Of a stretch of 64,000 nt of DNA, positions 6,493 to 63,217 are shown in pieces. Made by a program: the position numbers and the translations under genes. The stretch comes from Candidatus Udaeobacter sp. (lineage in GTDB: Bacteria > Patescibacteriota > Patescibacteriia > Magasanikbacterales > GWA2-37-8). Under the pieces are notes generated by a model. It made no database searches, had not been told where the DNA came from, and worked only from the letters and a program-made list of their open reading frames with translations. The stretch lies in NCBI GenBank assembly GCA_035473115.1, contig DATION010000001.1, positions 461-64,460 on the forward strand, written 5' to 3'. The stretch's first letter is position 1. Each line of letters opens with the position of its first letter.

Positions 6493-7455
6493 TTAGTTAA
6501 TCGTTCGGCTAGTACTTCTAAAATCATCGGGGTTGATCTCGTTTGATACCATAATTCGAACTAGACTCGTTCTATTCATCCCCAGGGATCTGGCGGCTTT
6601 TGATACATTGCCCTTGGCCTGTATAAGAGCCTCTCTTACTTGGTTAGCCTTGATTTGTCTGGTTGCAGCTTTAAGATCATTTTTAATGAGCGCAGGCGGC
6701 GGTTCCATTAGAAGTGGCATATCAGCAACGCCAGCCTCTGTTCCTTCACAGGCAATAACCATGCGCTCTACCACGTTGCGCAATTCGCGAATATTTCCCG
6801 GCCACGAATATTGGCGAAGCTTCGTTCGCGCTTCGGAGCTGATGCTGGTGACGATTGAAGATGGGTTTTCTCTTTTTACCTGACCCAGCAGGTGGTCAGT
6901 TATAGAGTCAATATCTTCTCTGCGTTCGCGCAGTGGCGGTAAACGCACACTTACTACGTTAAGACGATAAAACAGATCTTGGCGGAAGCGCTTCAGTTGT
7001 ACTAACTCCTCAAGGTTAGCATTGGTGGCGCAAACAATTCGAACGTCAATCGGAATTTCTTTGGTTGCTCCGATCCGACGCACTAGTCTTTTTTCTGCAA
7101 CTCGCAACAGCTTAGCCTGAGCGGCTTCTGACATCTCTCCTATCTCATCCAGGAAGACTGTTCCTGCGTAAGCTTGCTCAAATACTCCAGGATGTGCCGC
7201 GAATGCACCGGTAAAGGCGCCTCGCTCATGGCCAAACAGCTCGCTTTCAATAAGATGCTGGTTGAGTGCGGAGCAGTTGATAGCCACTAGCGGACCAGTC
7301 TTGCCACGAGGGCTTCGAGTATGGATATACTCCGCTAGCAGCTCTTTGCCCGTGCCGGTTTCTCCGGTTATTACTACCGAACAATTTCCTTGCTCGGCAG
7401 CTTTGGTTGCTATTGCCATGAGATCCAACATCGCTCTAGTCTTTCCAATAATCAT
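6493..7455 (-). CDS. Sigma-54-dependent transcriptional activator, PspF-like (AAA+ plus HTH, no sensor domain)
   Basis: Walker A GETGTGKE and the GAFTGA sigma-54 contact motif. C-terminal Fis-type HTH. 320 aa, with GC visibly above its neighbours. Confidence 0.8.
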   Translation of the reverse strand: MIIGKTRAMLDLMAIATKAAEQGNCSVVITGETGTGKELLAEYIHTRSPRGKTGPLVAINCSALNQHLIESELFGHERGAFTGAFAAHPGVFEQAYAGTVFLDEIGEMSEAAQAKLLRVAEKRLVRRIGATKEIPIDVRIVCATNANLEELVQLKRFRQDLFYRLNVVSVRLPPLRERREDIDSITDHLLGQVKRENPSSIVTSISSEARTKLRQYSWPGNIRELRNVVERMVIACEGTEAGVADMPLLMEPPPALIKNDLKAATRQIKANQVREALIQAKGNVSKAARSLGMNRTSLVRIMVSNEINPDDFRSTSRTIN

Positions 7456-12461: not shown

Positions 12462-12465
12462 AATT

Positions 12466-12541
12466 AAAAGCACCGACCCCCTTCTTGCGAAAAAGGTCGG
12501 CTTGACTAGCGCATAGTCACGAGACTGCTGTCTGCAGTCTC
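12466..12541 (-). terminator. Two hairpins after the RCC1 gene
   Basis: Perfect 9-bp stem CGAGACTGC/GCAGTCTCG. Then a CCGACC/GGTCGG stem followed on the minus strand by a T-rich run. Confidence 0.45.
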
Positions 12542-12557
12542 GGTTCGGTCTCCTGTA

Positions 12558-13883
12558 CTACTGGAAGATCACCGAGATGATCTTGGCCGGATTGTTCTGG
12601 GGGAGGAACGTCCCGTTGCCCACTTGGCCGGAAGATCCGTTGCCTTCACACCAGACACTCGTTTCCCAGTTCACCGGAGACGTGCTGGTGAGAGCATCGC
12701 TCAATTCGGAGCACTGAGTGTGGCCGCCACCAGAGACTGCGACGTAGCCTCTGTTTTGAGTCGCCGGCAAGGGCGGCATGCCCGAAGCCAGCGTGGCGGA
12801 AGTCTTGTCGATCATCGTCAGGTCTCCGAGCTGACGATTGTTATTGTAACCCCAGCACCACAAGTGCGGAGGAAACTTGGGAGAAACCGGATCCTGCTTC
12901 GAAACGCAGGAGTGGTTCTGGCCCAGTTTGTCACCCACCCGCGCGAGAGACGTGCCACTGGGCAGTCCCAACACGAGCGCCGGCGAGGTCTGATCAACTC
13001 TGTTGCCATTGCCGACCTGTCCATAGAAATTGTAGCCCCAGCAGCGCAGAAGGTCATCTGAGAAGCCCAGCCCGCAGGTATGCGATCCGCCTGCGGAAAT
13101 TGAGATGAAGTTCTGCAGAACTCTGGTCGGCCGTGGCTGGGACACAAAGCCGCCGATTCCGAGCTGGCCATGGTCATTGTCTCCCCAGCAGTACGTTACC
13201 CCGGTGGCAAGATCCATGACCACGCATGCGTGCTGTGGACCTGCCGTCCAACTGTAGAAGCCGCCCTGAACGGTGGTGGTAAGATTGCCAACTCCGTTCG
13301 GGTTCACGACAGGCGTCGGCAGGTTCTTCAGGCCGCTGAAGGTGCCGATGCCAAGCTGGCCGTTGGTGTTCTCACCCCAACAACGGAGTTGGTAGGTGAT
13401 CGGGTTCACCGTGGATGTCACGATCTCGGCGCAGGTGTAGTTGCCGGCGGCGGTAACCCAGACCACATTGCTCATGACCCGGGTCGGGGTAGCCTGGTTG
13501 GTAAAGTTACCAATCCCGAGCTGCCCTTCGAGGTTCCGGCCCCAGCAGTAGAGGTCCTGGTTCCCGATGCCGCTGGGATCCTTGAGTCCGCAGGCGTGTT
13601 CGGCACCGACCGACACCCACGTCCAGACCAGGGTTGGCGTGGCTGGGATCGTCGCCAGTCCAGCAGCTACAGGCACAGAAGAAGGGCTGAACCCTCCCGT
13701 TCCGAGCTGTCCCTTGTCGTTGCTGCCCCAGCAGAGCATCTTGCCTGCCAGGCTACCCAGTCGAGTAGTCTGTTTGTACACATAGCATCCGCTCGTATCC
13801 CCCACGGATAGGCGGGATGCCTCTGCCGTGCTGGCAGAGAGCATCAGGAATAGACCGAGAATGATGTACAAGAGCCTTTGCAT
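12558..13883 (-). CDS. Secreted RCC1-repeat (beta-propeller) protein, GC-rich
   Basis: Signal peptide. Repeated CWGxNxxGQLG RCC1 motifs. GC visibly about 60% against roughly 37% flanks. Confidence 0.8.
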   Translation of the reverse strand: MQRLLYIILGLFLMLSASTAEASRLSVGDTSGCYVYKQTTRLGSLAGKMLCWGSNDKGQLGTGGFSPSSVPVAAGLATIPATPTLVWTWVSVGAEHACGLKDPSGIGNQDLYCWGRNLEGQLGIGNFTNQATPTRVMSNVVWVTAAGNYTCAEIVTSTVNPITYQLRCWGENTNGQLGIGTFSGLKNLPTPVVNPNGVGNLTTTVQGGFYSWTAGPQHACVVMDLATGVTYCWGDNDHGQLGIGGFVSQPRPTRVLQNFISISAGGSHTCGLGFSDDLLRCWGYNFYGQVGNGNRVDQTSPALVLGLPSGTSLARVGDKLGQNHSCVSKQDPVSPKFPPHLWCWGYNNNRQLGDLTMIDKTSATLASGMPPLPATQNRGYVAVSGGGHTQCSELSDALTSTSPVNWETSVWCEGNGSSGQVGNGTFLPQNNPAKIISVIFQ

Positions 13884-13946
13884 TTGTTTCCCTTTCAGTC
13901 GTAACTCTACGTGTCTGTATCAGCCATCCGAATTGATGGCGGCGCA

Positions 13947-13975
13947 ATCTTAGCAGATAGGCCAAAAAATGTCAA
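13947..13975 (-). promoter_or_regulatory. Sigma-70-type promoter for the RCC1 gene
   Basis: Minus strand: TTGACA, 17-nt spacer, TAAGAT. The same style of element recurs at the other GC-rich ORFs. Confidence 0.5.
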
Positions 13976-14037
13976 TGGGAGTATCAACGTTCTTTCAGAT
14001 TGACATTGGCCGAATTTAGGTCTATCATAATATAACT

Positions 14038-16630: not shown

Positions 16631-17116
16631 CTATCTCAGGTTTAAATTTTTCAGTCGCCACATCATTGCTTCGCGGCTCACCTGATATTGTTCAGACAAT
16701 TCTATCAACCGATCTTCATAAGAACCATCTAATTTTCTAAAGTCGTTTAATAGTAGTTGTTTGGGCATAAGTAAATTCGCAGCAAAATCATCCGCTCTTT
16801 TTTCAAAAATAGTTTTATCCGGACGATTATTGTTATCCCTATAGTCAATGGAGACGGCTGTAGTACTTTCTAAAAAGAAGTGGCCGAGTTCGTGGGCGAT
16901 AGTGAAGCGGCGTCTCGCCGGAGACTCCTCAGTATTAATACCCATAAGAGCGCCACCATTTTTGCGTATTAAAATACCAGAATATTCAACGCTGGGAGCG
17001 TAGCTGATCTGAATATTCATTTTTTCTGCAATCTGTTCGACAGGTACCGGTGCCTCAGTTACCTTAAAGTGGGTAAGAATTTTCCGAACTTTCGCTTGTA
17101 TAATTTGACTGGACAT
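16631..17116 (-). CDS. ImmA/IrrE-family metallopeptidase
   Basis: HEXXH motif (HELGHF). Confidence 0.8.
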   Translation of the reverse strand: MSSQIIQAKVRKILTHFKVTEAPVPVEQIAEKMNIQISYAPSVEYSGILIRKNGGALMGINTEESPARRRFTIAHELGHFFLESTTAVSIDYRDNNNRPDKTIFEKRADDFAANLLMPKQLLLNDFRKLDGSYEDRLIELSEQYQVSREAMMWRLKNLNLR

Positions 17117-17118
17117 AA

Positions 17119-17529
17119 CTATTTATTTACTTTACCAAAAATTTTCTCCGCCCACTCTGCCGCGTTCTCATCTTTCTTTTTTATATTTTCAACGTCTATT
17201 TGGCTAAGTTCATAGCCCTTTGGAATGTCTGGAAAAAAATCTTTAACTTCACACCCCAGGATTGTGGCAAGTTTCCAGAGAGTGACAGCATTAACATGAT
17301 TTTGGCCGTTTTCAAGCTGAGTCAAAGCGACACGGCTCACACCTAATTTATGAGCCACCACTTCGGCGGTCAGAAAACCACGAGAATTTCTGCGTATTTT
17401 TTTTATCTTCGCCCCGATCTCTTCTTTGACCGTTTGTTCAATGTCTTTCTTAACGTTAATTATAGCCGATCGATCAAGATTGGACAACTTGGGGACAGGA
17501 AGTATTGCAGGGTTACTTTTTGTTTTCAT
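17119..17529 (-). CDS. XRE-family HTH transcriptional regulator
   Basis: HTH_3 region (LTAEVVAHKLGVSRVALTQLENGQ). Co-oriented with, and immediately upstream of, the ImmA peptidase. Confidence 0.8.
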   Translation of the reverse strand: MKTKSNPAILPVPKLSNLDRSAIINVKKDIEQTVKEEIGAKIKKIRRNSRGFLTAEVVAHKLGVSRVALTQLENGQNHVNAVTLWKLATILGCEVKDFFPDIPKGYELSQIDVENIKKKDENAAEWAEKIFGKVNK

Positions 17530-17530
17530 A

Positions 17531-17577
17531 GCTTACATATGTAAGCACAGATTACAGTACTGTAAAGTACAGCTTAC
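17531..17577. promoter_or_regulatory. Palindromic operator cluster upstream of the XRE gene
   Basis: Perfect 16-bp palindrome GCTTACATATGTAAGC (17531-17546). Perfect 12-bp palindrome TACAGTACTGTA (17553-17564). Another GCTTAC half-site at 17572. Confidence 0.55.
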
Positions 17578-17719
17578 ACAATTATAGTATAATCTATCAT
17601 TTGCAATTTGTCAAGATGTATGGTAGACTTAAGGTCTAGAAGGGAAATACCTTTAAAGATTTATTACTTTACGTGGCATCCTCGCCAACCGAGGGTCACG
17701 CTATACCTAAGCTAAAAAT

Positions 17720-17953
17720 ATGGCAAGGAATCAACAACACGTTGTACGACGCGATGAAGGGTGGGCGGTAAGAGGCGCTGGAAACTCCAGAGATACTGCG
17801 CATACCAAAACTCAAGGCAAAGCAATTGATATTGCACGAAACATTGCGATTAACCAAAAGGCGGAAGTGGTCATTCACGATCGGCACGGTAAAATTCGCG
17901 ATTCAGATTCTTACGGAAATGACCCAAGCAATATCAAGGATACTAAATTTTAA
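17720..17953 (+). CDS. DUF2188 family protein
   Basis: 77 aa with VVRRDEGWAVRGAGNSRDTAHTKTQGKAIDIARNIA...VVIHDRHGKIRDSDSYGNDP, the typical DUF2188 pattern. Confidence 0.65.
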   Translation: MARNQQHVVRRDEGWAVRGAGNSRDTAHTKTQGKAIDIARNIAINQKAEVVIHDRHGKIRDSDSYGNDPSNIKDTKF

Positions 17954-18067
17954 TCATTTAAACAAGCCGTCCAATGAAACGATGTAATGCGCCAGCGCTT
18001 CAATCGTGGCACTCTTTATTCTACCAGGCTTCGGTTACGAAGCCGGCTACTAAAACATTCTATCTAT

Positions 18068-18301
18068 ATGGCAAACGATAAAAAACCAATCGTGGAAATA
18101 ACGATAAATAATACACACTACAGCATTGAGCGTGGAAATTACTCTGTAGAGCAAATTAAAAATCTTGGACATGTGCCACTTGCCGACGATCTGCTTGAAA
18201 TTTTAGATAAAAAACTTAAAACTTTAAATGATAATGCTCACGTCGAGATTAAAGGCGGCGAAGTATTTGTTAGCCATCCAAAGGGTAGCGCATCCTCCTA
18301 A
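18068..18301 (+). CDS. Small ubiquitin-like (beta-grasp) protein
   Basis: 77 aa from the internal ATG at 18068 (MANDKKPIVEITINN...EIKGGEVFVSHPKGSASS). First gene of an operon with E2-like, JAB and E1 genes. Stop overlaps the next start (TAATATG). Confidence 0.5.
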   Translation: MANDKKPIVEITINNTHYSIERGNYSVEQIKNLGHVPLADDLLEILDKKLKTLNDNAHVEIKGGEVFVSHPKGSASS

Positions 18302-18302
18302 T

Positions 18303-18653
18303 ATGCGCGACCTTCCTTTGGACGAACTGGACGAGCTCAAGCTGGTTTGTGTATCGTTGAGTATAGCAGAGGAGGCTGGTCTCAGGTATATTCTTCTTCA
18401 AGGGTTGAATCTTCCAGTTGGCTGCCTCCCGGATAGAACAGATGCGTTGTTTTGCCCGATGCCACGCGACGGCTACTTGTCGAGATTATTTTTCGCAGAG
18501 AAGGTTAAGTTTCCAGGTGTTGAAAATCCCAACTGGAACGCAACTGACGTTCGGATACTTGAACGAAACTGGCACGCTATTTCATGGAAAGTACCCAGGG
18601 AGGATTTGCGCCTGGCTCAAATACTTTCAGATCATCTAAATCCACACATGTGA
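18303..18653 (+). CDS. Putative E2-like conjugating protein (divergent)
   Basis: 116 aa from the ATG overlapping the upstream stop. Conserved Cys residues (VGCLPD, FCPMP). Assigned mainly from operon position. Confidence 0.35.
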   Translation: MRDLPLDELDELKLVCVSLSIAEEAGLRYILLQGLNLPVGCLPDRTDALFCPMPRDGYLSRLFFAEKVKFPGVENPNWNATDVRILERNWHAISWKVPREDLRLAQILSDHLNPHM

Positions 18654-19147
18654 AAATCATAGTACGTATTAATGAAACACTTTATAAGCGCATGCTCGCT
18701 GATTTGAAGCGCTCACATCCAACCGCCTTTGAGCGAGTGGGTTTTGCTTTTGCAAAACAAGGCAAGGTGTCTAAAGAAGAGGTCCTTATCTTGTTTTGCG
18801 ACTACCTGTCATTACCAGATGGCTGTTATGTGGCTGATGAAAATGTAGGAGCGCAGATAAATTCAACCGGAATCAATATGGCGATGCAAAAAATTCTTGA
18901 CGAGCAGCAAGGCGCCTTCCATGTTCACCTGCATGATTGGCCGGGCAAGCCCAATTTGAGCTTAACTGATGTCGGCGGTATTTTACCTCTAATCCCAGGG
19001 TTTCAGGCTGTAGGGCCGCAACTGCCGCACGGTGTCCTTCTTCTTAGTCGAGACAGTGTAATTTGTTATGTTTGGCTTCCTGGTTCGGGCCAGCTATTGG
19101 CAGAAAAAATTACGATTGTAGGCAAACAAATGAAATTTTATGCTTGA
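18650..19147 (+). CDS. JAB/JAMM-family metalloprotease (deubiquitinase-like)
   Basis: HVHLHDWPGKPNLSLTD fits the JAMM HxH-x(7-8)-S-xx-D signature. Probable GTG start overlapping the upstream stop; start uncertain. Confidence 0.65.
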   Translation: MKIIVRINETLYKRMLADLKRSHPTAFERVGFAFAKQGKVSKEEVLILFCDYLSLPDGCYVADENVGAQINSTGINMAMQKILDEQQGAFHVHLHDWPGKPNLSLTDVGGILPLIPGFQAVGPQLPHGVLLLSRDSVICYVWLPGSGQLLAEKITIVGKQMKFYA

Positions 19148-19943
19148 TGAACAATATTCACGACAATCATTCCTGGGGGGTAGTGTTCAAAAAAGATTCC
19201 AGGCTGTCAAGGTTGCGATAATCGGTCTTGGGGGTGGCGGTTCGCATATAGCGCAACAATTAGCGCACTTGGGAATTTTGAATTATGTTTTATACGATCC
19301 GCAAACTATCGAACTATCCAACTTAAACAGGATGGTCGGAGCGCGCCGTTCTGATGTCGGTGCTTTAAAAATTTTAGTCGCACAAAGAATAATTTTAGAT
19401 ATTCAACCCAAGGCAAATGTCTATGTTGTTGCCGATCGTTGGCAAAAAATGCCTGAGCTTTTACGTGGATGTGATATTATTTTTGGATGCGTAGACACTT
19501 TTAAAGATAGGAATGAATTAGAAGCTAGCGCGAGGCGTTATCTCATTCCATACATTGATATCGGAATGGATATTTTTAAAATTGGCAATGAGCTTCCGCG
19601 AATGGTTGGGCAAGTAATTTTGTCATTACCTGGATCTCATTGTTTACGGTGTCTGGATTTTATTACCGAACAAAATTTGGGAAACGAGGCAAGTAACTAC
19701 GGGGCTGCTGGTGGTCGTCCGCAGGTCGTTTGGCCAAATGGTATCCTAGCTTCGTCGGCTGTGGGTCTTGCAGTGAGCATGATAACAGGGTGGAATGAAA
19801 CAAATAATTTTCCAATATATTTATCTTATGACGGTAACAGTATGTGCGTTACCCGACACATACGATTAGATTATGAGTTGCCAGAAAAATGTGAGCACTT
19901 TCCTCCCAGTAAGGTCGGTGAACCAGAATATAAGAATGTTTAG
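19140..19943 (+). CDS. E1-like ThiF/MoeB-family adenylyltransferase
   Basis: YSRQ...VAIIGLGGGGSHIAQQLAHLG Rossmann motif. CxxC (HCLRC). Overlaps the JAB gene stop. Confidence 0.8.
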   Translation: MLDEQYSRQSFLGGSVQKRFQAVKVAIIGLGGGGSHIAQQLAHLGILNYVLYDPQTIELSNLNRMVGARRSDVGALKILVAQRIILDIQPKANVYVVADRWQKMPELLRGCDIIFGCVDTFKDRNELEASARRYLIPYIDIGMDIFKIGNELPRMVGQVILSLPGSHCLRCLDFITEQNLGNEASNYGAAGGRPQVVWPNGILASSAVGLAVSMITGWNETNNFPIYLSYDGNSMCVTRHIRLDYELPEKCEHFPPSKVGEPEYKNV

Positions 19944-20004
19944 ATGTTTTAATCAAAAGAAAACTGACCGTAGGGGGGGTCGTTGGCTATACAGAATAAA
20001 TTTG

Positions 20005-20076
20005 CTCCGGGGGCTGGACTCGAACCAGCGAAATCCACGTTAACAGCGTGGCGTTGTACCACTCAACTACCCCGGA
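20005..20076 (-). tRNA. tRNA-Asn (anticodon GTT)
   Basis: Manual cloverleaf: acceptor TCCGGGG/CCCCGGA, D-stem GTTG/CAAC, anticodon stem CCACG/CGTGG with loop CTGTTAA, T-arm GCTGG-TTCGAGT-CCAGC. CCA not encoded. Confidence 0.85.
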
Positions 20077-22298: not shown

Positions 22299-22320
22299 AA
22301 TTTTAAATAAAAATTAAAAC

Positions 22321-22355
22321 AAAAAACAGCCTTTGATTAAAACGCTGTTTTTTGT
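22321..22355. repeat. 35-bp perfect direct repeat, copy 1 (also the bidirectional terminator of proS and of the gene at 22462-23244)
   Basis: AAAAAACAGCCTTTGATTAAAACGCTGTTTTTTGT, identical to 23482-23516. Hairpin AACAGC/GCTGTT with A/T flanks. Confidence 0.8.
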
Positions 22356-22461
22356 TTTTGTCCCGACCCATGCTTCACAGCTTTGGTCAGGACGAGTTGA
22401 GTATCCGCTTCACTTCAGGAGAACGATTTCGTTCTCAGTGAAGTAGAAGTCGGATCTTCTG

Positions 22462-23244
22462 TCAGTAGGCGACTCGCCACCTATTCCAGTGGCGGTGCTT
22501 CTTGTACTGATCACCATCATGACCACGGCGCATTTTGCGAACGCCGTGGTATTTAGATTCGATAGCGATCATCTCATCTTTGGTCATACGGTAGTAGCGG
22601 TCAGCGAAGTCGCCGTACCGCTCCTCGATCTTGTCCATCTCCACCTGCCTGATCCAGGCCTCTTCCAGCTGATCACCCTGTAGCTCGGTGATCATGCCGT
22701 ACTCGATCAGCCCAGCGGTGGCACTGATCAGTACTGCATCGATCAGAGGCATGAATCCATGACGGAGAGCGTACAGCGCCTGCAGCGCCGAATCGAGGTA
22801 CTTCTTCTTGAAATCCTCGATCTGCATCTGGCGCAGTGTCTCCTTCCTGAACTCTTCCTCTGCTTGGCGCTCTCGCTCAGCCCGCTGCTTGCGATCTTCC
22901 ACCTCAGCCTTGAGTGTGGAGATCAGCAGCGGCATTTGGTTCACCCACCGCTCGAGCCCGTCCACTTGCGTGGGGATGGGTCGGGCGGCGAGCGCGCGAA
23001 CCTGATCTCGGAACTCGCTGTCTGCGTCCGTTCCGTGCGGACAGTGCGAAGCCAGGTTGAGAACCTGCTCCTTGAACTGTTCCGCCGATCGGACGAGTTC
23101 ACGGCGACGCAGTTCGCCGCTTCGCTCCAGTTCCTGGAGCTGTTGAGCGGCTTCAGCTGCAGCCCGTGCCTGTTGGGCGCGGAGGTGGGTGGTCGTGTAT
23201 GACGACGACCGGCTGCTGACGATGACTTCGACCTTGCGTGGCAT
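22462..23244 (-). CDS. GC-rich hypothetical protein, predicted coiled-coil
   Basis: 260 aa, GC visibly about 60%. AGGAG SD (ACAGGAGACATCAG) before the ATG. Consensus promoter upstream. Confidence 0.5.
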   Translation of the reverse strand: MPRKVEVIVSSRSSSYTTTHLRAQQARAAAEAAQQLQELERSGELRRRELVRSAEQFKEQVLNLASHCPHGTDADSEFRDQVRALAARPIPTQVDGLERWVNQMPLLISTLKAEVEDRKQRAERERQAEEEFRKETLRQMQIEDFKKKYLDSALQALYALRHGFMPLIDAVLISATAGLIEYGMITELQGDQLEEAWIRQVEMDKIEERYGDFADRYYRMTKDEMIAIESKYHGVRKMRRGHDGDQYKKHRHWNRWRVAY

Positions 23245-23444
23245 CTGATGTCTCCTGTTGAAGTTGCGGTTGCCCGCACTTCTTCAGGTTGAACACCATT
23301 TGCCATGACGTTGACGTGCGGGGGAAATTGTCTTTTGTACTTCCCCTTTATAACTTCCAGATCATGTTGGTTTTCTCCTTCTCGGGTGGTTTTCCCGCAA
23401 AAAATAGTTATGGATAATTAGCTTTTGCAGAAAAACAACTGTAA

Positions 23445-23473
23445 ATCTTAGCAGGAATATAGTTTTTTGTCAA
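23445..23473 (-). promoter_or_regulatory. Sigma-70-type promoter for the gene at 22462-23244
   Basis: Minus strand: TTGACA, 17-nt spacer, TAAGAT. Lies immediately downstream of repeat copy 2. Confidence 0.5.
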
Positions 23474-23481
23474 GATGGAAC

Positions 23482-23516
23482 AAAAAACAGCCTTTGATTA
23501 AAACGCTGTTTTTTGT
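23482..23516. repeat. 35-bp perfect direct repeat, copy 2 (terminator of the gene at 23566-24258)
   Basis: Identical 35-mer to 22321-22355. The flanks differ. Confidence 0.8.
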
Positions 23517-23565
23517 GTTGGCCACGACTCCCTCCGTGAGTCATGGCGGATGTTGTACAACTACT

Positions 23566-24258
23566 TCAGCCGCCCTTTTTTCCTCGGCCCCCGCGCGCTG
23601 CCGCGCGGTGAACTTTGGCTCTCGCTGCCTTGTAGGCAGCGTGGGCCTTGGCCCCCGCGCTTGTGCCCGTGCTGGACTGCTTCGGCTGGTTCTCCTCGAG
23701 CCACTTCTCGTCCTGACAGCCATCGGCCATGCAGAACTTGAAGGAGACGGGGATCACTGCCTGGCAGCCCTGGCCAGAGCATCGGTGTCCGCAGTCCGAA
23801 CAGTAGTTCGGACCTTCGACTGGGAGTTCCGCGCCGCATCCATTCCCTTTGCAGAGTTTGGTAGTTGGCGCGAAGCTCTTGCATCCTTGGCAGAGCGGGT
23901 ACCATGTCGGGATCTGCCGACCACATCCACCCTTGCATGGGTGAATGCAGTCGTCACAGAGACCGAATCGTTTCCCGACCCGCACCTGGTTGGTGCATTG
24001 AGTGCCAGTTTCCGGATGTTCCCGGTTGCGGCACTGCTGGGTCTGGACAACGACTCGATCGGCCTTGGGTGGCGGTGCAGACTTCATGATGGTTGGTTCG
24101 GGCGTTGTTGCATCGCCCTCCTCCATCACAGCCGTGTGGATGGTCGCCTGTGGCGAGGCCGCTGGCGCCTCGCAGTTGGCGACTGCCTGGACAGGCTGGG
24201 TCTGCATGAGCACAGCAGAGAGAACTTCTTCCAGAACGTTGACGAGATCAGTGAGCAT
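23566..24258 (-). CDS. GC-rich Cys-rich hypothetical protein (multiple CxxC pairs)
   Basis: Start placed at MLTDL (24258), which has an AGGAGA SD 6 nt upstream. The ORF track extends it to 24303. CDDC, CQGC, CSDC and related pairs suggest zinc-ribbon-like modules. Confidence 0.45.
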   Translation of the reverse strand: MLTDLVNVLEEVLSAVLMQTQPVQAVANCEAPAASPQATIHTAVMEEGDATTPEPTIMKSAPPPKADRVVVQTQQCRNREHPETGTQCTNQVRVGKRFGLCDDCIHPCKGGCGRQIPTWYPLCQGCKSFAPTTKLCKGNGCGAELPVEGPNYCSDCGHRCSGQGCQAVIPVSFKFCMADGCQDEKWLEENQPKQSSTGTSAGAKAHAAYKAARAKVHRAAARGGRGKKGG

Positions 24259-24516
24259 GAGAATCTCCTCGTGGGATGTAGTGAACGGGAATGAACCGCA
24301 CACTACTTCCCTGAGAGATCATCTCGTGATCACTAGGTTGATGTGCGGTAGATATTCACAAGCATAAAGCTTCAACGAAAATTTGGTTGTCGTTCCATGA
24401 TCCCCTCCGTAGGTAATTGTACAATGAACGCGGAAACGGCCGTCCGAAGGACAGTTATTCCGACGGAAAGAATTTTTTCCTTTCCCTAGGAACAACTTTC
24501 ATATGAGTAATAAAAG

Positions 24517-24545
24517 AGCATACTATAAAAAAGTATTTTTGTCAA
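24517..24545 (-). promoter_or_regulatory. Sigma-70-type promoter for the gene at 23566-24258
   Basis: Minus strand: TTGACA, 17-nt spacer, TATGCT. Followed by a roughly 280-nt 5' UTR. Confidence 0.45.
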
Positions 24546-24561
24546 GTATGGGCTGGAGAAT

Positions 24562-24589
24562 AAAAAACTGCCATTTCAGGCAGTTTTTT
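24562..24589. terminator. Bidirectional hairpin terminator
   Basis: AAAAAACTGCC-ATTTC-AGGCAGTTTTTT. Confidence 0.6.
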
Positions 24590-24610
24590 AATTTTTATTT
24601 TGATTTATAT

Positions 24611-26176: not shown

Positions 26177-26236
26177 AGAGTTTCATTTTCAGAGAGTGTT
26201 TATTATAGGGATAGTTTACAGAATTTAACTTAGATT

Positions 26237-26615
26237 GTAAACAATATTTAAAAAATTGAACCCCGCGATGCCGGAGCATGCGGGGGCGGGCGGGAGAGGG
26301 TGGCCAAGTTAGTTGTACCTATGCCGCCTTCTTCGGTGATTGTGCTGGAAGTTACGAGGTTTGTTCCTGCCGCGTTGTGCGCGTTGTGAAATTTTCCAGC
26401 GTTTGGTTCCCGGGTAGAACACTTCAGACCGGGGAATGAAACCGTGTCCGGTTATCATGGTTCTATGTGGAGCTCGTTGCCCCATCATAATCCACCAGCA
26501 GGCGAAAGCCGGAATAAAATTAATGAACATTTACTCTCCTTTGCAGAGAAGTTGTTGTGTTTTTTACTCTCCGTTTGATGACACAATTTTAACAGGTTTT
26601 TGTAAGCAGTCAAGC
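26237..26615 (-). other. GC-elevated noncoding region between tgt and trpS (candidate structured RNA or leader). A GC-rich terminator ends about 60 nt upstream of the trpS start.
   Basis: GC visibly about 50-55% against mid-30s flanks. Minus-strand hairpin CCCCGC...GCGGGG followed by TTCAATTTTTT at about 26238-26275. The embedded 73-aa ORF (26309-26530) has an Arg-rich tail typical of a spurious reading frame. Confidence 0.3.
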
Positions 26616-33920: not shown

Positions 33921-34007
33921 GTTTAAGTAAAATTTACCTAAAACTAAGTGCATCGTTTTATTTTTTATGGTATAATAAAAACCAATAAAGAAAGCCACTT
34001 TATTTTT

Positions 34008-37000
34008 ATGAAGAGGGGACAAATTTTTAGTTTATACCCAGTTCTCTTCAAGAGAAAATTAAAGAGATTATTTTTGTTGTTTAAAGAAAAATATAATCCG
34101 CATTTAATAATTATAAAAAAGAAATTTCATGTTACGGTGGCGGTAATTTTACTGACAGTAATTTTGGTAAATTTATTTCAATTTTGGTCAGTGCCGATAG
34201 TTCAGGGTGCTACCTATACTTTTGTGCAAAGAGATTGGAGCGGAGGAGTTAGTAATTCTGTAATTGTTCATCCTGATAATCAAACCGGTTGGAATAGTTT
34301 TTCTACCAGCACAAATACCTTTACATCAGGAACCACCACAGTCTCTATCGCCAGCAGCACATACAGTTCTACTGACGACGGCACTTTTTCATCCACTGGC
34401 AGCGCAACTGGCGGCGGTTTTAGCAACGGTGCAACTTCCACTACTTCTATATCAGGCAGCGGCAGCTCTGCCTCCATTAAATTATCCGGTAGCACTACAG
34501 CGGTAAATCGTGTTACTGCCACAACTACAATGACTGGTGCTTTTTATCACGGAGGTGGTCAGATGGTTGGTGCTGCTGGATCTGATTATTTATATATTAT
34601 TGAAGGAGGTAATCGAGCTGCCCCACTGCGTCGTTTGACTATCTCAACTGCTGCTACTTCCAGTTTGGCCACTTATACCTATGCGTATTTTGGCGCTCAA
34701 TTGCTTTGGAATGGCAGTGATGATTATATTTATTTAGCTGAAGGGCAAAATGATAAATTTGATCGTTATTCAATATCAGGTAATTCATGGACTTCAATGG
34801 CTAATTTTCCGGCATCTTTACCAACTGATGTTTCAGAAACTGCTGCTTTACGTTACAACACAGAAGATTACATTTATTTTTTTAGAGGCAGCAGATTTGC
34901 TGATTTTTACCGTTACTCAATCAGCGGCAACAGTTGGTCTTCACTAACCTCATTACCAATAGTAGCTGGTTATGGTATTCAGGCAACAAGAGATGCAAAC
35001 AGCGATAGTATATATGTTTTACCTGCCAATGGTACTAATTTTTATCGCTATTCTATCGCTGGAGATTCGTGGACATCTATGGCAGCTGTTCCTTTATCTT
35101 TTGGTACTACTACAAATGCCGGTATTTTGCATGATGAAGGCAGTGATTATATTTATCTTTTAGTCGGAGATCATCTGTATAGGTATTCAATTAGTGGTAA
35201 CTCCTGGACAACTATGGCTGACGCTTCGTCGGTAAATCCTGATTTTGGTACAACATTATTGCATACTGCCGGCGAAGACACAATTTATGTGACTGGCCAA
35301 TGGGATTGTTGTGCTTCTGTGAGGGTATGGGCATATTCTATTAGCGGCGACAGCTGGACACAGTATGCTATAGTTTCAAACCATAGTGGTGGTTATGGTT
35401 CGCCAAATAAAACAGCTTTTCGTCGTACTTCTGATGAGTCTTTTTATTTTATTACGGCTGCTGGTGGAGATAGTGAAGTGTTCAAATATACAATTAGTCA
35501 AACGATATATAATTCTTCTGGCAACTTTACATCTGCCAGCCTGGATTTAGGGGTTGCCAAAATGAATTCTTTGTCTTGGACCAGCACAACTCCGTCCGGA
35601 GTTGGGAGTAATTCAATCCAATTCCAACTAGCTGCCAATAATGATAACAGTACTTGGAATTATGTTGGTCCGGATGGCACAAATTCTACATTTTTTACTA
35701 GTAACGGCACAACTTCTTTTCCTTCATCTCTGCTAAACAAAAGATATTGGCGGTATAAAGCATTTTTAACTACTGCTGATACCACTGTTTCGCCATCGTT
35801 AGACAGCGTTACTTTTTCTTATTCCTCTTACGCAACCTCTAGCTCTTTAATTTCCTCTATATACGATACGGTTGATCCAACAAATGTTTTGGCCAGCATT
35901 GGTTGGAGCCCATTTTTGCCAACTAGCACTACTATTAAATTTCAACTGCGCACCGGATCTAGCACCTCCAGTATAAACTCGGCCACCTGGGTTGGTCCGG
36001 ATGGTACAGCCTCCACTTTTTTTACTAATAGTTCCGGAGAGACTACCACTTCCACTATGCGTGATGGATCCGGTGATAGATATTTCCAGTACAAGGCTTT
36101 CTTACAAACCACAAATCCTGCATTTACGCCGGTCCTTTCCAGCGTTACTAGCACCTATGTAGTTAATGCTAATCCGGAAATTCAAAATGTTTCCGCCAGT
36201 GAAAATGGTAGTGGTGTAGTAACTATTACTTATCAAGCCAGAGATCCTGATACTAGCACAGGTACTGTTAATCCGGGCTTTGTCAGCTCCACGTTTGAAT
36301 ACTTAGACGCCAACGGCGCTTATCAAACTATACCTGCCAATCAGCTTTCAGCCGGAGCAAATAGTAATTTGGCTGTTCAAGGAGTTAACTGGACTACCTC
36401 TACTGTTAGTTGGACATTGCCGTCCGGGCTTAATATTGCCGCTAGTCGGATAAGAGTAACGGTAAATGATAATGAAGCGGCGAATAACACCGCTGCCTCT
36501 TCTTCGCCTACCTTTCAGATAGATAGCGTTGCTCCATCGGCAACATCAGTAATTGTGGATGGTTCCCAAACACCAGCTCTGCTTACTTTTAATGTCAGTG
36601 ATAGTTCTACTTTATTCATGAAAGTTTCGGAAAATAGTACCTTATCAGATGTTTCTACCTGGTCAGCTTTTACAGCCACTACCACATTTACACTGAGTTC
36701 TAATCCAGATACAGTTTATGCTCAGTTTAAAGATGTTTATGGTAATACCTCAACTATTGTTCATGCCACGACACCGCAAACCCCAAATAGTTTTATCGTT
36801 CAGGATAATTCCAATGTTTTAAATGGCGCTACTGATTATCGTCTTTTTGTAGCTTGGAGAGTAGTGGCTACTCCTAGTCCGGGCTTTGGCAGCTATAAAG
36901 TTTATCGATCTGAGGATCAATCCACCTGGACTTTAATTTCAACCATTAGTTCTATCAGTGATAATTTCGTTACTGACAATACCACTGTTTCAAATACTCT

Positions 37001-40000
37001 TTACTATTATAAAGTAAAAACTGTTGATGCGGATGGCAACACTTCAGTTTTTTCTTCCATTGTAAATGGGCGCGCTAATGGCGCCCAAGATGCTGGTGAA
37101 GGTGGAGGCGGGTCAGGTGTAGGCAGCGATCCGGTTATTACTTCGGTCGCCACTTCTTCACCTACTCCATCTTCTATCACCATTACTTGGGATACGGATG
37201 CTTTATCTAATTCTGTTGTTGGTTTTTCTACTACCCCAGGAAATTTTACCGATAATACCGTGACGGTTAATTCCATGGTAAATAATTCTTCCGGAGTAGG
37301 AAATCACAATGTGGTTTTGGGAGGACTTGTTCCAAATACTACTTATTATTTTAATGTAAAATCTGTTTCCGCCAGCAACGCTTCTTCAACCGATAGTAAT
37401 GGCGGTAATGGTTATATTTTTACCACTCCTTCCGGCCCGACTATTACCGGGGTTTCGGCCGTAGAAGTTAATAATACTTTTGCCAGAGTAGTTTGGAGTA
37501 CTTCAGAAAATTCTAACAGTTCAGTAATTTATTCCACTTCCACAAGCTTAACCAACTCTGTAACCACCAGTTCTGTTCAAATGGGCACTGCCCATGATAT
37601 GACTTTAACTGGTTTAACAGCCGGTACGAGATATTATTTTTACGTTCAATCGGTCAACGGATCCGGAGTAACTTCCACAGATAAAAATTTAGTAGGTGGC
37701 ATACTTCAATATTTTAATTTGGCGACTACTCTAGACAGCACCGGTCCGACAATTTCTTCCATTGCCACCACTACCAGCGATAACTCGGCTAACATTACTT
37801 GGAACACAAACGAAAGCGCCGATTCGCAAATTATTTATGGTCTTACGACTAGTTATGGCTCCACTACTACTTTAGATAGTACTTTTACTACTCAACATTT
37901 AATGACTCTCTCGGGACTTAGTTCTTCAACAGCTTATCATTTCAAAATATTATCCAGAGATAAAAATAATAATTTAACAGCTTCAGCTGATCAATTAATA
38001 ATTACTTCCGCTACTCCCGATACTACCGCGCCAATTATTACTAGTGTTGCCACCTCTAGCGTATCTCTGACCGGCGCCACTGTTACTTGGACAACAGACG
38101 AGTTAGCTTCCTCAATTGTTGAATACGGTATTACCACTTCTTCATATAGCAGTCTGGCTGGTTCAAATTCCGATTCAGTCACTTCGCATTCTGTTTCTTT
38201 AGCTAGTCTGAGCGGCAATACTGCTTATTATTTTAGAGTTAGATCAGCTGATTCGGCCGGCAATTCGGCCATGAGTGATAATAGCGGCCAGGGCTGGCAA
38301 TTTGTTACCGTAGCCGATACCACTGGTCCGGTAATTTCGGATGTAAATCTTTTGGTCAATGATACTTCGGTAGCAATTTCTTGGACAACCAATGAGCCGG
38401 CTAGTTCAGAAGTTGATTATGATACAACTTCCAGTACATTCGGTTTTTCTAGCTCCACTGCTTCACTCGTTACCAACCATACAATTACTATTACCGGTTT
38501 AACAACTAATGTTACTTATTTCTTCCGCCTAAAATCCACGGATAGTGCTGGTAATACTACTATAGATAATAATGGCGGTGCTGCTTATAGCTTTACTACT
38601 CAACAGACTCCGGGCTTGGTTAGAGTAGGTGGCGGCGGTGGCGGAGCGCCAAGAGATACCGATCCTCCGGAAATTAGCAATCTTAGCATAACCGATATTG
38701 CTCCTAGCTCAGCTAGTGTTATTTGGCAAACCAGTGAAGATGGTAATTCTTTGGTACGGTTTGGATCAAGTATTAAATATGGAACTTTAACCGGTAATGA
38801 TTCAGAACTGCTTACTTCCAAACATAATGTCAGTCTGTTTGATTTAAAACCAGGACAAACCTATCATCTAAGAGCCGTAACTTATGATGCTGCCGGTAAT
38901 CGCGCCGAATCAATCGATAAAACTTTTTCAACTTTGAATTCAGACGGTTCGGAAGTTACCCCAAGCACTAGCACCGAAAAGACACCGGAAGAAGAGGTGA
39001 CTCCGGAAACCCAATTTATATCCGATTCTTTGCAGAAGGCTTCAAGTCAATCTTTGCAAAAGTTCCTAGCTGATATAGCTTCTAATCCATTCTTGAAAAA
39101 TATTCCTGAAGATAAGTTTATTCAAGCTATTTTCGAAATGACCAGTAAAGTAGTTGAAGCTCCGACCATCGTTGGAGTTAAACCGACAGTAGAAGTAAAA
39201 GGAACCTCCGCTCTTATTAGGTGGTCGACAGATAAAAAATCTTCCTCTGAGTTAAACTATGCCAGAGATGTTGATTATAAGCCTGCTTCTAATAACGCTT
39301 ACACTAACGCAGCTGTTAATCCGGATGAATTTAGTGTTAACCATTCTGTACAATTAACTGGTCTTGATCCGGGAGTCTTATATCACTTTAAAGTAAGTTC
39401 AAAAGGCTTAATTGGTCCGGCAGCTGTCAGCGGTGACTATACTTTCTTAACCACCGGTGATCTGCCGATAATTTCCAATATTAAAGTGGCCAGACCAACT
39501 GAATCGCAGTCTTCTATCATAGTTGATTGGAGAACCAATATTCCGACTGCCGGTACCGTAGAATATAAGAATGTTAAATCCGGACAATCCTTGACCCAAG
39601 GAGACGAAACATTGCTCGTTAATCATGAAGTTGCTCTCAAAGGTTTGGAGGGCGGCGTAAATTATACTTTAGTTATCAAAGCTAGAGATGAATTCAAAAA
39701 CGAAGTTGCCAGTTTGCCGATAACATTCTCCACTCTTTTAGATAAGATAAGTCCGGTAATAACTAAACTTTCTTCCGAATCAACTTTATACCCGGGTAAA
39801 GATTCTAAAGTTCAAACTATTATTTCTTGGGAGACAGATGAGCCGGCTACTTCTCAAGTGTTCTATCAGGAAGGTTTGGCTGGTGATAATGTAATTTCGT
39901 TGCCGCTAGACACCTCGCTTAATACTCGCCACGTGGTGGTAATAACCAAATTTAAACCTGGCACAGTTTATAAATATTGGGTAGAATCAAAGGATCTGGC

Positions 40001-61451: not shown

Positions 61452-61483
61452 AAGAGGTCAAAGAAAATCAAGTTAAACAAAAA

Positions 61484-61557
61484 AACCGCTAATCTTAGCG
61501 GTTTTTTTGTTTTATAACAATAGGAGTATTGACTAAAAGTTAAAAGTAGTATATATT
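61484..61557 (+). promoter_or_regulatory. Cassette 1 terminator-promoter unit
   Basis: Hairpin ACCGCTAA-TCT-TAGCGGT with A6/T7 flanks (also the asnS terminator). Then TTGACT (61529), 17-nt spacer, TATATT (61552). Confidence 0.6.
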
Positions 61558-61602
61558 TGTGGCGCATGGCAACACGCCATGAATGCTAACAAGGAGATAT
61601 AG

Positions 61603-62124
61603 ATGAAGACCCTTCTGTTGACACTGGCATTCCTCCTCCCGATGGTAGCCCCTGGCTGTGCCATAGAGCCCGAAGGAGGCAGTGCCCCACCCGATGCGAG
61701 TGCGGCTCCGGCTCCGACTGCTGACAAGCCGACGGCCAGTACTCGTACGTCAGATCCCGATGAGGGGTTTCGCCAGGACTGCGACTGGTTTCCAGATCAG
61801 CAGGTCTGCGGGGAAGATGGCGGAGGCGGTGGTGGTGGAGGTGGCGGCGGAGGCGGTGGTTCGTCATGCTGGATGAGCTGCTCACCTTACACGTGTTGGC
61901 TCTACCTGGATGGTGCCCTTCATTGGACGTTCCAGTGTACTACTGGTTCGGGAAACAGCACCTGCTCAAGTTCGGGGTGCGGTTCATGTCCGGCTCAGGG
62001 CGTGACCCCAGGATGCATCACCGGTTGTGGCAATGGTGGGGGGGACGACTACGCTCTGGCATTGTGCCGAGCTACTTGCTGGATCAATTCAACCTCTACA
62101 TGCTCAGGTGGCTACACGTCATAG
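61603..62124 (+). CDS. GC-rich secreted Cys-rich protein with a poly-Gly tract (paralog of 63218-63724)
   Basis: Signal peptide ending APGC. Pro/Ala-rich linker. G16 run. C-terminal domain with about 14 Cys. AGGAG SD. Confidence 0.6.
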   Translation: MKTLLLTLAFLLPMVAPGCAIEPEGGSAPPDASAAPAPTADKPTASTRTSDPDEGFRQDCDWFPDQQVCGEDGGGGGGGGGGGGGGSSCWMSCSPYTCWLYLDGALHWTFQCTTGSGNSTCSSSGCGSCPAQGVTPGCITGCGNGGGDDYALALCRATCWINSTSTCSGGYTS

Positions 62125-62189
62125 TAACTTAGTGTATTAGTAGAACCGCACCGCGCAAGTGGTGACGCTTCTCCGATACTAGATGGCCC

Positions 62190-62235
62190 GGACCCGGTGC
62201 AGCACGAAGTGCAGCCCGGGTCCTTTGTTTTATTG
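62190..62235 (+). terminator. GC-rich terminator of cassette 1
   Basis: GGACCCGG...CCGGGTCC followed by TTTGTTTTATT. Confidence 0.55.
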
Positions 62236-62286
62236 ATCAATTTTAAAATAATTTCTAAGATTTTTATAAAAAATTAAATTTAATGT

Positions 62287-62367
62287 ATAGAAAAATCGCT
62301 AATTTTAGCGATTTTTTTGTATTTTTTACAAAAGGGTATTGACAAAAAAATTAAAATAGTGTATATT
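62287..62367 (+). promoter_or_regulatory. Cassette 2 terminator-promoter unit
   Basis: Hairpin ATCGCTAA-TTT-TAGCGAT with A/T flanks. Then TTGACA (62339), 17-nt spacer, TATATT (62362): a perfect consensus -35. Confidence 0.6.
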
Positions 62368-62437
62368 TCTTTTCGCCTGGCAATTAGTTGTCGGGTACGC
62401 GGCGATCATGCCGTGGTTACAGGAGGTTCTAGTAAGA

Positions 62438-63159: not shown

Positions 63160-63217
63160 TGCTCCGCCCAACAATTTTGTTTGGGTACAGTAACCTCCCC
63201 CCGTATAGGAGATACAA

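Follow-up and report, generated by a model that had tools for sequence, protein, structure and literature searches.

Stacked GC-rich cassettes and a duplicated terminator palindrome behind proS in a Patescibacteria chromosome

The spacer between proS and a DUF5671 gene in the AT-rich chromosome (~40% GC) of an ultra-small Patescibacteria host holds two GC-rich gene cassettes, M1 and M2, and M1 is bounded on both sides by identical copies of a 38-bp palindrome, T. We hold it probable, with a confidence somewhat above even, that two horizontally acquired cassettes were stacked in this spacer and that M1 was added later, leaving two copies of T. Each cassette would constitute an independent and complete transcription unit, the two lying head to tail, and each would consist of a sigma-70 promoter close to consensus, a long, structured leader containing a mini-ORF and a strong Shine-Dalgarno sequence (SD), a GC-rich orphan ORF that evolves fast, a stem-loop tail, and T.

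Cassettes M1 and M2 and the repeat T

The window, by which we mean the whole 64-kb stretch of DNA that was analysed, is core chromosome around the locus, with proS, trpS, tgt, a uvrD-like gene, and ribosomal protein operons as neighbors. The predicted features of the locus, in window coordinates, are these:

22318..22355, no strand assigned: T copy 1, a 38-bp palindromic bidirectional terminator that would close proS (plus strand) and cassette M1 (minus strand), from the exact repeat and hairpin energy
22356..22461, minus: M1 3' tail, two very stable hairpins without a U-tract of their own (-50.7 kcal/mol, z -8.1)
22462..23244, minus: M1 ORF, an orphan protein of 260 aa, all helical, whose C-terminus is basic (GC3 0.71)
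23245..23444, minus: M1 leader, a 5' hairpin, then an SD and the mini-ORF MIWKL-stop, then alternative hairpins (-65.2 kcal/mol, z -4.9)
23445..23473, minus: P1, the M1 promoter, TTGACA-17-TAAGAT with an extended -10 TG, from a promoter scan (10/12 matches)
23479..23516, no strand assigned: T copy 2, an identical 38-bp terminator that would close M2 and insulate P1, from repeat and fold
23517..23565, minus: M2 3' tail hairpin (fold energy -18.6 kcal/mol)
23566..24258, minus: M2 ORF, a Cys-rich protein of 230 aa that has CxxC repeats and a basic tail (GC3 0.69)
24259..24516, minus: M2 leader, a structured core, a uORF, and a hairpin pairing with the SD of the main gene (fold z -4.2)
24517..24545, minus: P2, the M2 promoter, TTGACA-17-TATGCT, from a promoter scan
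24561..24590, no strand assigned: T', a bidirectional terminator between proS and the DUF5671 gene, from a terminator scan (-15.9 kcal/mol)

An earlier note on this DNA, made from its letters, had described two minus-strand, GC-rich genes separated and bounded by a perfect 35-bp direct repeat. The description of the genes is borne out: both ORFs lie on the minus strand, with 59% GC for the ORF at 22462-23244 and third-position GC of 0.71 for M1 and 0.69 for M2, as compared to 0.34-0.37 for host genes. This contrast marks a foreign composition and counts as support for horizontal acquisition. The repeat is also real and not due to chance, since the 35-mer occurs exactly twice in the window (22321-22355 and 23482-23516) and not once in 100 shuffles, even when three mismatches were allowed. 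Its length, however, required correction. A comparison of the flanks of both copies, a check proposed in the earlier note, shows identity running 3 nt further to the left (AAC), such that the exact repeat is 38 bp with a period of 1161. To the right, 8 of the next 12 nt still match, and the 3' ends of M1 and M2 are 92% identical over 50 nt.

To within 1 nt, what was duplicated is the palindrome with its arms ACAAAAAACAGC/GCTGTTTTTTGT. On each strand T is predicted to form a symmetric hairpin bordered by an A-tract and a T-tract (T6 on both), with fold energies of -17.7 and -19.4 kcal/mol and z scores of -7.5 and -6.6. A stem-loop with a U-tract is found on both strands, and proS and M1 converge on copy 1; T is predicted to be a palindromic bidirectional intrinsic terminator. 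The proposed roles of copy 1 as the terminator of both proS and the 260-aa gene, and of copy 2 as that of the Cys-rich gene, are upheld in silico by these folds and by the A- and T-tracts. T is absent from the list of a simple terminator scanner, which missed it because of an internal mismatch and a long loop. Nor is the 35-mer a widespread terminator family, a finding that would have told against the earlier note: there are two copies in the 64-kb window, and a search of 185,579 GTDB species genomes and of IMG/VR gave no match to the 23-nt core of T.

The M1 insert, without T, is 1123 bp. Its protein has a single close homologue in a set of 5.8 billion proteins, and the M1 profile, run exhaustively with HMMER against 1.84 billion representatives, found 4 matches altogether; for either cassette no more than two or three homologues are available. 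Neither M1 nor M2 matched a family in Pfam, NCBIfam, PHROG, or PADLOC (nothing below E=0.02), transposase families included in the case of M1. The AlphaFold2 model of M1 consists of long helices (pLDDT 78) and has no structural match in the PDB with E<=0.001, and that of M2 is poor (pLDDT 45). The promoter that the earlier note placed directly beyond copy 2 was recovered by the promoter scan and reads 23473-23445, 5 nt from T. The mini-ORF with a strong SD in the 5' UTR likewise holds up in silico, at 23365-23348 on the minus strand behind GAAGGAGA, and one alternative hairpin of the leader is predicted to pair with the SD of the main gene. The homologous leaders at L002, L206, and L207 are conserved together with their mini-ORF, which is kept in position and not in peptide (MIWKL, MTRL, MRT, MT). 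The M1-family homologues elsewhere sit among neighbors that are themselves richer in GC (GC3 0.62-0.74) and are free-standing units in which promoter, mini-ORF leader, and terminator are arranged as in M1, which argues that the unit travels or persists as a whole.

The M2 start was taken as ATG 24258, behind GAGGAG. A homologue, P0004, is 51-54% identical with its Cys columns conserved, and the M2 homologue carried by the related genome L019 is syntenic. In this relative and in L084 the -35 and -10 elements of P2 (24545-24517) are conserved, and the position of the M2 tail is occupied by a different hairpin followed by a T-like terminator. The leader contains a core of ~90 nt (24501-24413) that is conserved in three genomes with 72% mean column identity and its helices kept, and a uORF, MERQPNFR-stop, at 24398-24372. 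A covariance model of the core found no copies beyond the three known in 415 kb of loci scanned. The two leaders share a 12-nt motif, CCGCACRTCAAC, at equivalent positions, and leaders and tails of both cassettes are without a match to known RNA families in Rfam. A separate GC-rich block (L019 4540-4830), together with the trpS-tgt spacer of the window, was considered as a noncoding RNA and set aside, with no Rfam match and no convincing alignment.

Three states of the locus

In related genomes with ProRS ~85-87% identical to that of the window, one locus is found in three states. It is empty in L004, where a single terminator stands between proS and the DUF5671 gene; L019 and L084 carry the M2 homologue only, with one T-like terminator adjoining it (in L084 at a contig end); and the window carries M1 and M2. 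In position, T' is orthologous to the single terminator of L004 and to the T' of L019 and L084, and the stem shows compensatory changes. By this comparison T', and not T, is the ancestral proS terminator, so that T came in with the cassettes. Since relatives hold the locus empty or with M2 only, M1 and one copy of T are the latest addition, and M2, which is common to related genomes, is the older resident. The T-like terminator of L019 and L084 already differs from T in its interior, although their ProRS is 85% identical, and the identity of the two T copies at 38 of 38 positions therefore indicates a recent copy.

The comparison supports insertion of a cassette at a terminator, and with it one half of the view, held in the earlier note, that a module had been duplicated or recombined here. 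The other half, site-specific recombination, found no support in the window. The search for one that the earlier note had recommended was run on the window ORFs that were scanned, a subset, and found no tyrosine or serine recombinase, nor any transposase. The cassette ends carry no terminal inverted repeats except the palindromy of T itself, and no integron signature (intI, attI, Pc) is present in the window.

The age of M2 presents a difficulty for the explanation we favor. Third-position divergence is similar for M2 (0.51) and for proS (0.46-0.47), for which reason M2 may be old, and if it is, its lasting GC-richness lacks an explanation.

M1 and M2 are two of six GC-rich cassettes at three loci in the window. 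Three of the four others form an array after asnS (61480-63955), in which frames of terminator plus promoter are 72-87% identical and the ORFs C4 and C6 are paralogous, with an unrelated ORF, C5, inside the same frame. Judged from these alignments, the array would be the same architecture at an older stage than M1 and M2. The cassette genes are fast-evolving orphans, whose products are Cys-rich, coiled-coil, secreted Gly/Cys-rich, or RiPP-like. When the tails of all six cassettes were compared, only the three of the asnS array aligned convincingly; the M1, M2, and RCC1 tails have a two-hairpin layout in common, their sequence not clearly so. A 3' element common to all six was dropped, as the tails cannot be aligned beyond the asnS array, and a donor could not be traced through the RCC1 cassette, whose best non-self matches are only 28-35% identical.

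Route of insertion and rival explanations

In the reading we favor, M1 would have been inserted after M2, between proS and M2, with an identical T left on each side. The likeliest route, we infer, is recombination at the terminator palindrome itself, in one of two versions: a Campbell-type crossover of the resident T with a second T, carried at the 3' end of cassette DNA that had come in or been circularised, or a structure-directed staggered break at the base of an extruded hairpin, followed by fill-in. Identical direct repeats flank M1 and a single T-like copy is found in M1-free L019, an arrangement of the attL/attR type; the duplication of T may represent an att-like core or plain homology. 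Following insertion, T copy 1 would end transcription of both proS and M1, and copy 2 would end that of M2 while shielding the M1 promoter from read-through. From their folds, the mini-ORF leaders probably act as translational gates for the main ORFs, switching between an SD-sequestering hairpin and its alternative.

A different history would be a tandem duplication of an ancestral frame, by unequal crossing-over or slippage, in which the content of one copy was replaced or diverged and T was kept or restored by gene conversion. Just such tandem frames make up the asnS array, including paralogous ORFs and an unrelated one, and the M1 and M2 leaders are alike in design as well as in their 12-nt motif. 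We nevertheless find this quite unlikely. Beyond T and ~12 nt of tail, M1 and M2 are not alignable in their promoters, ORFs, and most of their leaders, yet T is perfectly preserved; a conversion tract confined to a 38-bp palindrome is itself improbable, and M1-family genes are free-standing in other genomes. T might also be a generic terminator that arose twice by common descent or convergence, in a manner unrelated to insertion. Its outer arms, ACAAAAAACAGC...GCTGTTTTTTGT, do have a generic shape, and a degenerate pattern of the palindrome is found in at least 120 unrelated metagenome contigs, with other loops, a pattern so generic that it says no more than that terminators commonly have arms of this form. 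The 13-nt interior, however, is in none of those contigs, the core has no match in the databases searched, and the orthologous terminators of L019 and L084 have already changed inside, so that such an origin is scarcely credible. Much the same low standing belongs to a transposon-like insertion in which the 38 bp are a target-site duplication made by a transposase. Direct repeats do surround a discrete 1123-bp insert, and the repeat is a structural unit, the hairpin; but the ends lack terminal inverted repeats other than the palindromy of T, no transposase was found in M1 or among the scanned ORFs of the window, and target duplications of known transposases, at ~2-15 bp, are far shorter.

The placement of M1 between two T copies comes from one assembly, and M1 could instead be an extrachromosomal or excised 1161-bp circle, an allele of a subpopulation, or a sequence from another T-flanked site. 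A 38-bp repeat makes a loop in the assembly graph. Three Logan contigs of run SRR9656165 are 100% identical to the window, and each stops exactly 30 nt into the 38-nt repeat, which is what a repeat node at k=31 would give; M1 is a separate contig of 1183 bp that ends on both sides in the repeat. The k=31 graph is a loop, and M1 in tandem, M1 as an excised circle, or a subpopulation free of M1 would all be compatible with it. Against an artefact or mixture, the 65-kb MAG contig threads M1 once, and if the assembly used k > 38, as the MEGAHIT k141-type assemblies of the same catalogue would suggest, every junction is read-supported. A loop with two entries and two exits has proS-T-(M1-T)n-M2 as its sole linear solution, and the integrated order provides every gene with a promoter and a terminator. 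The M2 cassette recurs at this site in independent MAGs and runs, and the GC-rich DNA here is for that reason no assembly chimera. We regard an artefact or mixture as very unlikely.

Relation to known systems and significance

Of known concepts the phage "moron" comes nearest; the present case lies in a core chromosome. Morons are autonomous transcription units of HK97- and HK022-type phages, defined as one gene with its own promoter and factor-independent terminator, of deviant GC content, lying between genes that are adjacent in a relative and spread horizontally (Cumby, Davidson & Maxwell 2012, PMC3594210). The cassettes resemble them as extra DNA between genes that are adjacent in L004, with a predicted promoter and factor-independent terminator of their own around one coding region and a composition that deviates from that of the host. 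They differ in that they lie between proS and trpS, near ribosomal protein operons and not in a phage or prophage, and carry long leaders with mini-ORFs; an exact terminator duplication is also no part of the moron definition. Phage origin was dropped, with no homologues in 50,697 phage records or IMG/VR and no PHROG matches.

Integrons offer a second likeness, that of single-gene modules in one orientation, each ending in an imperfect hairpin palindrome, with the new beside the old. Yet integron cassettes are promoterless and served by a common promoter, whereas each cassette here has its own near-consensus promoter; the scanned ORFs of the window lack an intI integrase, attI and Pc are missing from it, the cassettes are spread over three loci, and the arms of T form a plain A-tract/T-tract terminator without RYYYAAC/GTTRRRY core sites. 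Integron, transposon, and group II intron readings were all dropped for want of their defining parts. Elements flanked by attL and attR include integrase-less, cis-mobilisable ones and can accrete in tandem. With these the locus has in common a repeat of a few tens of bp, empty and single-occupancy relatives, and stacking behind a housekeeping gene, but M1 measures only 1.1 kb and contains a single orphan gene, no integrase was found among the scanned ORFs of the window, and the repeat is a terminator palindrome rather than the 3' end of a tRNA or other gene. For the leaders, the systems to compare are translational attenuation of the erm/cat type and minigenes of two to five codons such as lambda bar. 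A strong SD and a very short ORF ahead of alternative hairpins, one predicted to pair with the main SD, are the likeness; the mini-ORF peptide, which is not conserved, is the difference.

A bolder reading, which we think unlikely, is that Patescibacteria may harbor undescribed mobile, self-contained expression cassettes, each with a consensus promoter, a mini-ORF leader, a fast-evolving GC-rich orphan gene, and a stem-loop tail, that are captured and stacked behind housekeeping genes with a palindromic terminator as the recombination site. This may be integron-like accretion without the parts of an integron; ~10% of a 64-kb core-genome window would then be cassettes, and their GC-richness would be actively maintained and not merely uneroded.

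The genomes of ultra-small Patescibacteria are streamlined, and little is understood of how accessory genes enter them. At this locus three successive states survive (no cassette, one, and two), and because an intact duplication of the terminator palindrome marks the newest insertion, the junctions at which a single gene was acquired are open to direct reading, which is a rare case. The conserved mini-ORF leaders suggest shared translational control of the cassette genes, and the fast evolution of these orphans would suit genes that interact with hosts or competitors. If the repeat records one recombination accident only, the locus is a tidy example of ordinary horizontal transfer. If terminator hairpins are landing or recombination sites, this would explain how ready-to-express foreign genes can pile up behind essential genes and leave them undisturbed.

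Two GC-rich cassettes and a repeated terminator

GC content in the window is about 40%, and core genes are present: proS, trpS, tgt, asnS, EF-G, EF-Tu, a UvrD-like helicase and the ribosomal protein operons. Within it lie six blocks at 55-62% GC: 12462-13990, the minus-strand cassettes M1 and M2 between proS and the DUF5671 gene, and three tandem units at 61480-63955 after asnS. The ORFs of these blocks have GC3 values of 0.57-0.73, as compared to 0.34-0.37 for host genes. M1 and M2 are arranged as [proS]-T-[M1]-T-[M2], where T is a palindromic terminator, and contain the following features.

24561-24590, both strands: T', a third bidirectional terminator, unlike T, between P2 and the DUF5671 gene
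24545-24517, minus: P2, the M2 promoter (TTGACA-17-TATGCT; promoter scan)
M2 leader, about 260 nt, minus: conserved structured core, uORF, and a hairpin pairing with the main Shine-Dalgarno (SD)
24372-24398, minus: M2 uORF MERQPNFR*, behind a strong SD
24258-23566, minus: M2 ORF, 230 aa, Cys-rich, followed by a tail hairpin
23479-23516: T copy 2, closing M2; M1 begins five bases past it
23473-23445, minus: P1, the M1 promoter (TTGACA-17-TAAGAT), five bases from T copy 2
M1 leader, 200 nt, minus: 5' hairpin, GAAGGAGA, mini-ORF, alternative hairpins
23365-23348, minus: M1 mini-ORF MIWKL*, behind a strong SD
23244-22462, minus: M1 ORF, 260 aa, helical
M1 tail, minus: two hairpins, -50.7 kcal/mol (folding)
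22318-22355: T copy 1, after the M1 tail, facing the proS end

The earlier note had described an exact 35-bp direct repeat. This 35-mer occurs in two exact copies in the window (22321-22355 and 23482-23516), where chance predicts none even with three mismatches allowed. The identity of the copies held, but the length did not: the flanks add three bases on the left, giving 38 bp (22318-22355 = 23479-23516, period 1161). To the right, 8 of 12 further bases match between copies (50 nt at 92%), and the cassette ends show weak tail similarity rightward beyond the repeat and a sharp boundary on the left. T is palindromic almost throughout, ACAAAAAACAGC-loop-GCTGTTTTTTGT, with an A-tract on one side and a T-tract on the other, and folds as a hairpin on both strands (-17.7 and -19.4 kcal/mol, z about -7); the duplicated segment agrees with the palindrome within one nucleotide. 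T would act as the functional terminator of each cassette, because the M1 and M2 tails both lack a U-tract of their own. The same note had pointed to the promoter beside copy 2, which the promoter scan recovered, and to a MIWKL mini-ORF in the leader of the 22462-23244 gene, which was located at 23365-23348 (minus).

Origin of the cassettes at the proS locus

Relatives present the locus in simpler states. In L004 (ProRS 86% identical, 39% GC), one terminator is all that separates proS from the DUF5671 gene and trpS, and GC-rich DNA is absent. In L019 (ProRS 85%), the order is proS, a T-like terminator, one GC-rich M2 homologue, a T'-like terminator and the DUF5671 gene; the T-like terminator has the arms of the window T and a different interior, and the M2-type cassette conserves promoter and leader. 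L084, a Logan contig of a different run, is likewise in the one-cassette state, its end falling inside its T. These empty, one-cassette and two-cassette loci support the module insertion that had been suggested from the window sequence.

In the four genomes the T' hairpins occupy orthologous positions and their stems show compensatory changes; T is seen only at loci holding a cassette; T is therefore part of the cassette frame, and its candidacy as the ancestral proS terminator was rejected. Since the window alone among the loci compared carries M1, M1 (1123 bp) plus one T copy appears to be the most recent addition. The T duplication is likewise judged young, because the orthologous T of L019 and L084 already differs inside while the window copies agree at 38/38. 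The three ProRS sequences are about equidistant (85-87%), so M2 may reflect either a single gain with loss in L004 or two gains at the same site.

Incoming DNA would carry T at the 3' end of M1, and a crossover inside T with the resident cassette end would give a Campbell-type insertion; the sharp left boundary and weak right similarity are the pattern expected from such a crossover. A staggered break directed by the structure of the extruded palindrome and made at its base, followed by fill-in, would likewise copy the palindrome and nothing more, and we prefer neither route. Site-specific recombination is possible; the cassette ends have no terminal inverted repeats besides T itself, no recombinase or transposase domain was found in the window ORFs scanned, and integron core sites are absent. 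Tandem duplication with content replacement is a live alternative for M1 and M2: the asnS array has a like architecture at an older stage, with an unrelated ORF between two paralogues, but M1 and M2 have almost nothing in common outside T.

Run SRR9656165 contains three Logan contigs that match the window at 100% identity. They stop exactly 30 nt inside the repeat, and M1 stands on a contig of its own (1183 bp) that begins and ends in the repeat. Such breaks are what a 38-bp repeat leaves in a graph built at k=31, and they fit an integrated copy, a circle or a mixed population alike. The MAG contig threads M1 once. Independent assemblies have the M2 cassette in this same position, which shows that GC-rich cassettes in these AT-rich genomes are real.

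Cassette families, leaders and further cassettes

M1 and M2 have one close homologue each among 5.8 billion proteins, and searching 1.84 billion representatives with a profile gave four M1 relatives in total. Neither matches a family in Pfam, NCBIfam, PHROG or PADLOC, and relatives were absent from the phage collections searched. The predicted M1 structure is an all-helical bundle with no structural match at E<=0.001; the M2 model was unusable. Differences at codon positions 1-2 amount to 0.28-0.38 versus 0.04-0.13 for proS, and third positions differ alike in both (0.46-0.51). These codon-position differences show that the cassette proteins evolve fast under real coding constraint. Between L019 and L084, tails and T are 92% identical and the ORFs largely unalignable; the frames stay conserved and their contents change.

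M1-family genes on four contigs (L002, L206, L207, L208) have GC-richer neighbours than those in the window, whose genome is an unusually AT-rich host for an M1-type unit. Where the upstream region is present in the contig, the unit has a TTGACA promoter, 5' hairpin, strong SD, mini-ORF, hairpins, SD, ORF and terminator, a shared layout which marks the whole promoter-to-terminator unit as the heritable or transferable module. The homologues' mini-ORFs (MTRL, MRT, MT) span two to five codons (L002 65-79; L206 249-260; L207 128-136). Across M1- and M2-family leaders with upstream sequence available, ORFs of 2-8 codons behind a strong SD are conserved in position, not in sequence, and in the folds the main SD sits within an alternative hairpin. 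The mini-ORF leader, which has no Rfam match, may be a translational control element.

Further cassettes in the window are:

61480-63955, plus: array of three GC-rich cassettes (ORFs C4, C5, C6), tandem, directly after asnS
62438-62623, plus: 61-aa peptide between C4 and C6, Cys-rich core
12462-13990, minus: RCC1 cassette, with TTGACA-17-TAAGAT promoter, 5' hairpin, ORF and two-hairpin tail

A 78-nt terminator and promoter frame (72-87% identical) precedes each asnS-array cassette, the first frame being the asnS terminator. The tails share a conserved 51 nt (..CGCGCAAG..CTCCGAYAC..GACCCGG, 65-75% identical), and a further promoter follows at the window end. C4 and C6 encode paralogous lipoproteins, each combining a poly-Gly run with a Cys-rich domain. 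The leader of the 61-aa peptide is similar to those of class I lanthipeptides and GG-type RiPPs (NF038153, E 2.6e-4, falling slightly short of the cutoff), and the peptide ORF is followed by ~350 nt of GC-rich non-coding sequence; no RiPP modification enzyme is visible in the window. The RCC1 cassette encodes a 441-aa secreted RCC1-repeat protein (GC3 0.73; best non-self homologues at only 28-35% identity), and its tail is predicted also to terminate the upstream plus-strand gene. Inside this ORF, ARAGORN called a 91-nt tRNA-Ser(GCT) (13672-13762, minus), unreported by Rfam at gathering score and probably a spurious call within GC-rich coding DNA.

Genomic setting and relation to known elements

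Proteins of the 65,041-bp contig are labelled "Candidatus Udaeobacter sp." (Verrucomicrobiota) at NCBI; gene content and the close ProRS relatives, every one a Patescibacteria MAG, indicate Patescibacteria. The label is probably a binning or labelling error, with co-abundance with a host as a possible alternative cause.

Several other loci were recorded. A defence-island-like cluster (16631-20076) adjoins tRNA-Asn (20004-20076): a CapP-like M78 peptidase (E 1e-34) and HTH regulator are oriented divergently to DUF2188, two ORFs of 104 and 187 aa without assignment, and a ThiF/E1-like protein matching PADLOC E1-E2 models (E 4e-11). The 320-aa protein at 6493-7455 (minus; GC somewhat raised at 49%) joins a sigma-54 activator AAA+ domain (E 4e-63) to a Fis-type HTH and has no receiver or sensor domain, which is surprising for a reduced Patescibacteria genome. 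Between fusA and an ABC transporter, a 2058-aa ORF (33948-40124, plus) with internal DNA repeats (families D5, D6, D9) is probably a large repetitive surface protein. The 440-nt trpS-tgt spacer (26177-26615) holds no convincing ORF; in the equivalent region of L019 (4540-4830), 290 nt of GC-rich DNA follow a promoter-like TTGACT site. Neither matches Rfam and their mutual alignment is unconvincing; they may represent an unrecognised ncRNA.

Morons are described as autonomous transcription units, each with a promoter and a terminator of its own (PMC3594210). The cassettes show all of these features in silico but lie outside any phage, and so appear moron-like in working and non-members in the strict sense. 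They lack at least one defining feature each of the integron and the transposon; of a classical att-integrase element they show the flanking direct repeats, with no integrase identified among the window ORFs scanned. Horizontal transfer and genomic islands are documented in general for Patescibacteria (PMC12455944); a limited literature search brought up no account of single-gene cassettes, complete from promoter to terminator, being stacked at terminators in this group. An analogous unit on an unrelated 37% GC metagenome contig (L202 320-1450) has a consensus promoter, structured leader, GC-rich ORF of ~265 aa and GC hairpin terminator, and an adjoining AT-rich ORF shares a C-terminal motif with the GC-rich one; the phenomenon may be more widespread. 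The cassettes are moron-like units, gained by horizontal transfer, in the core chromosome of a CPR bacterium, and the locus provides a three-state series together with a conserved mini-ORF leader.
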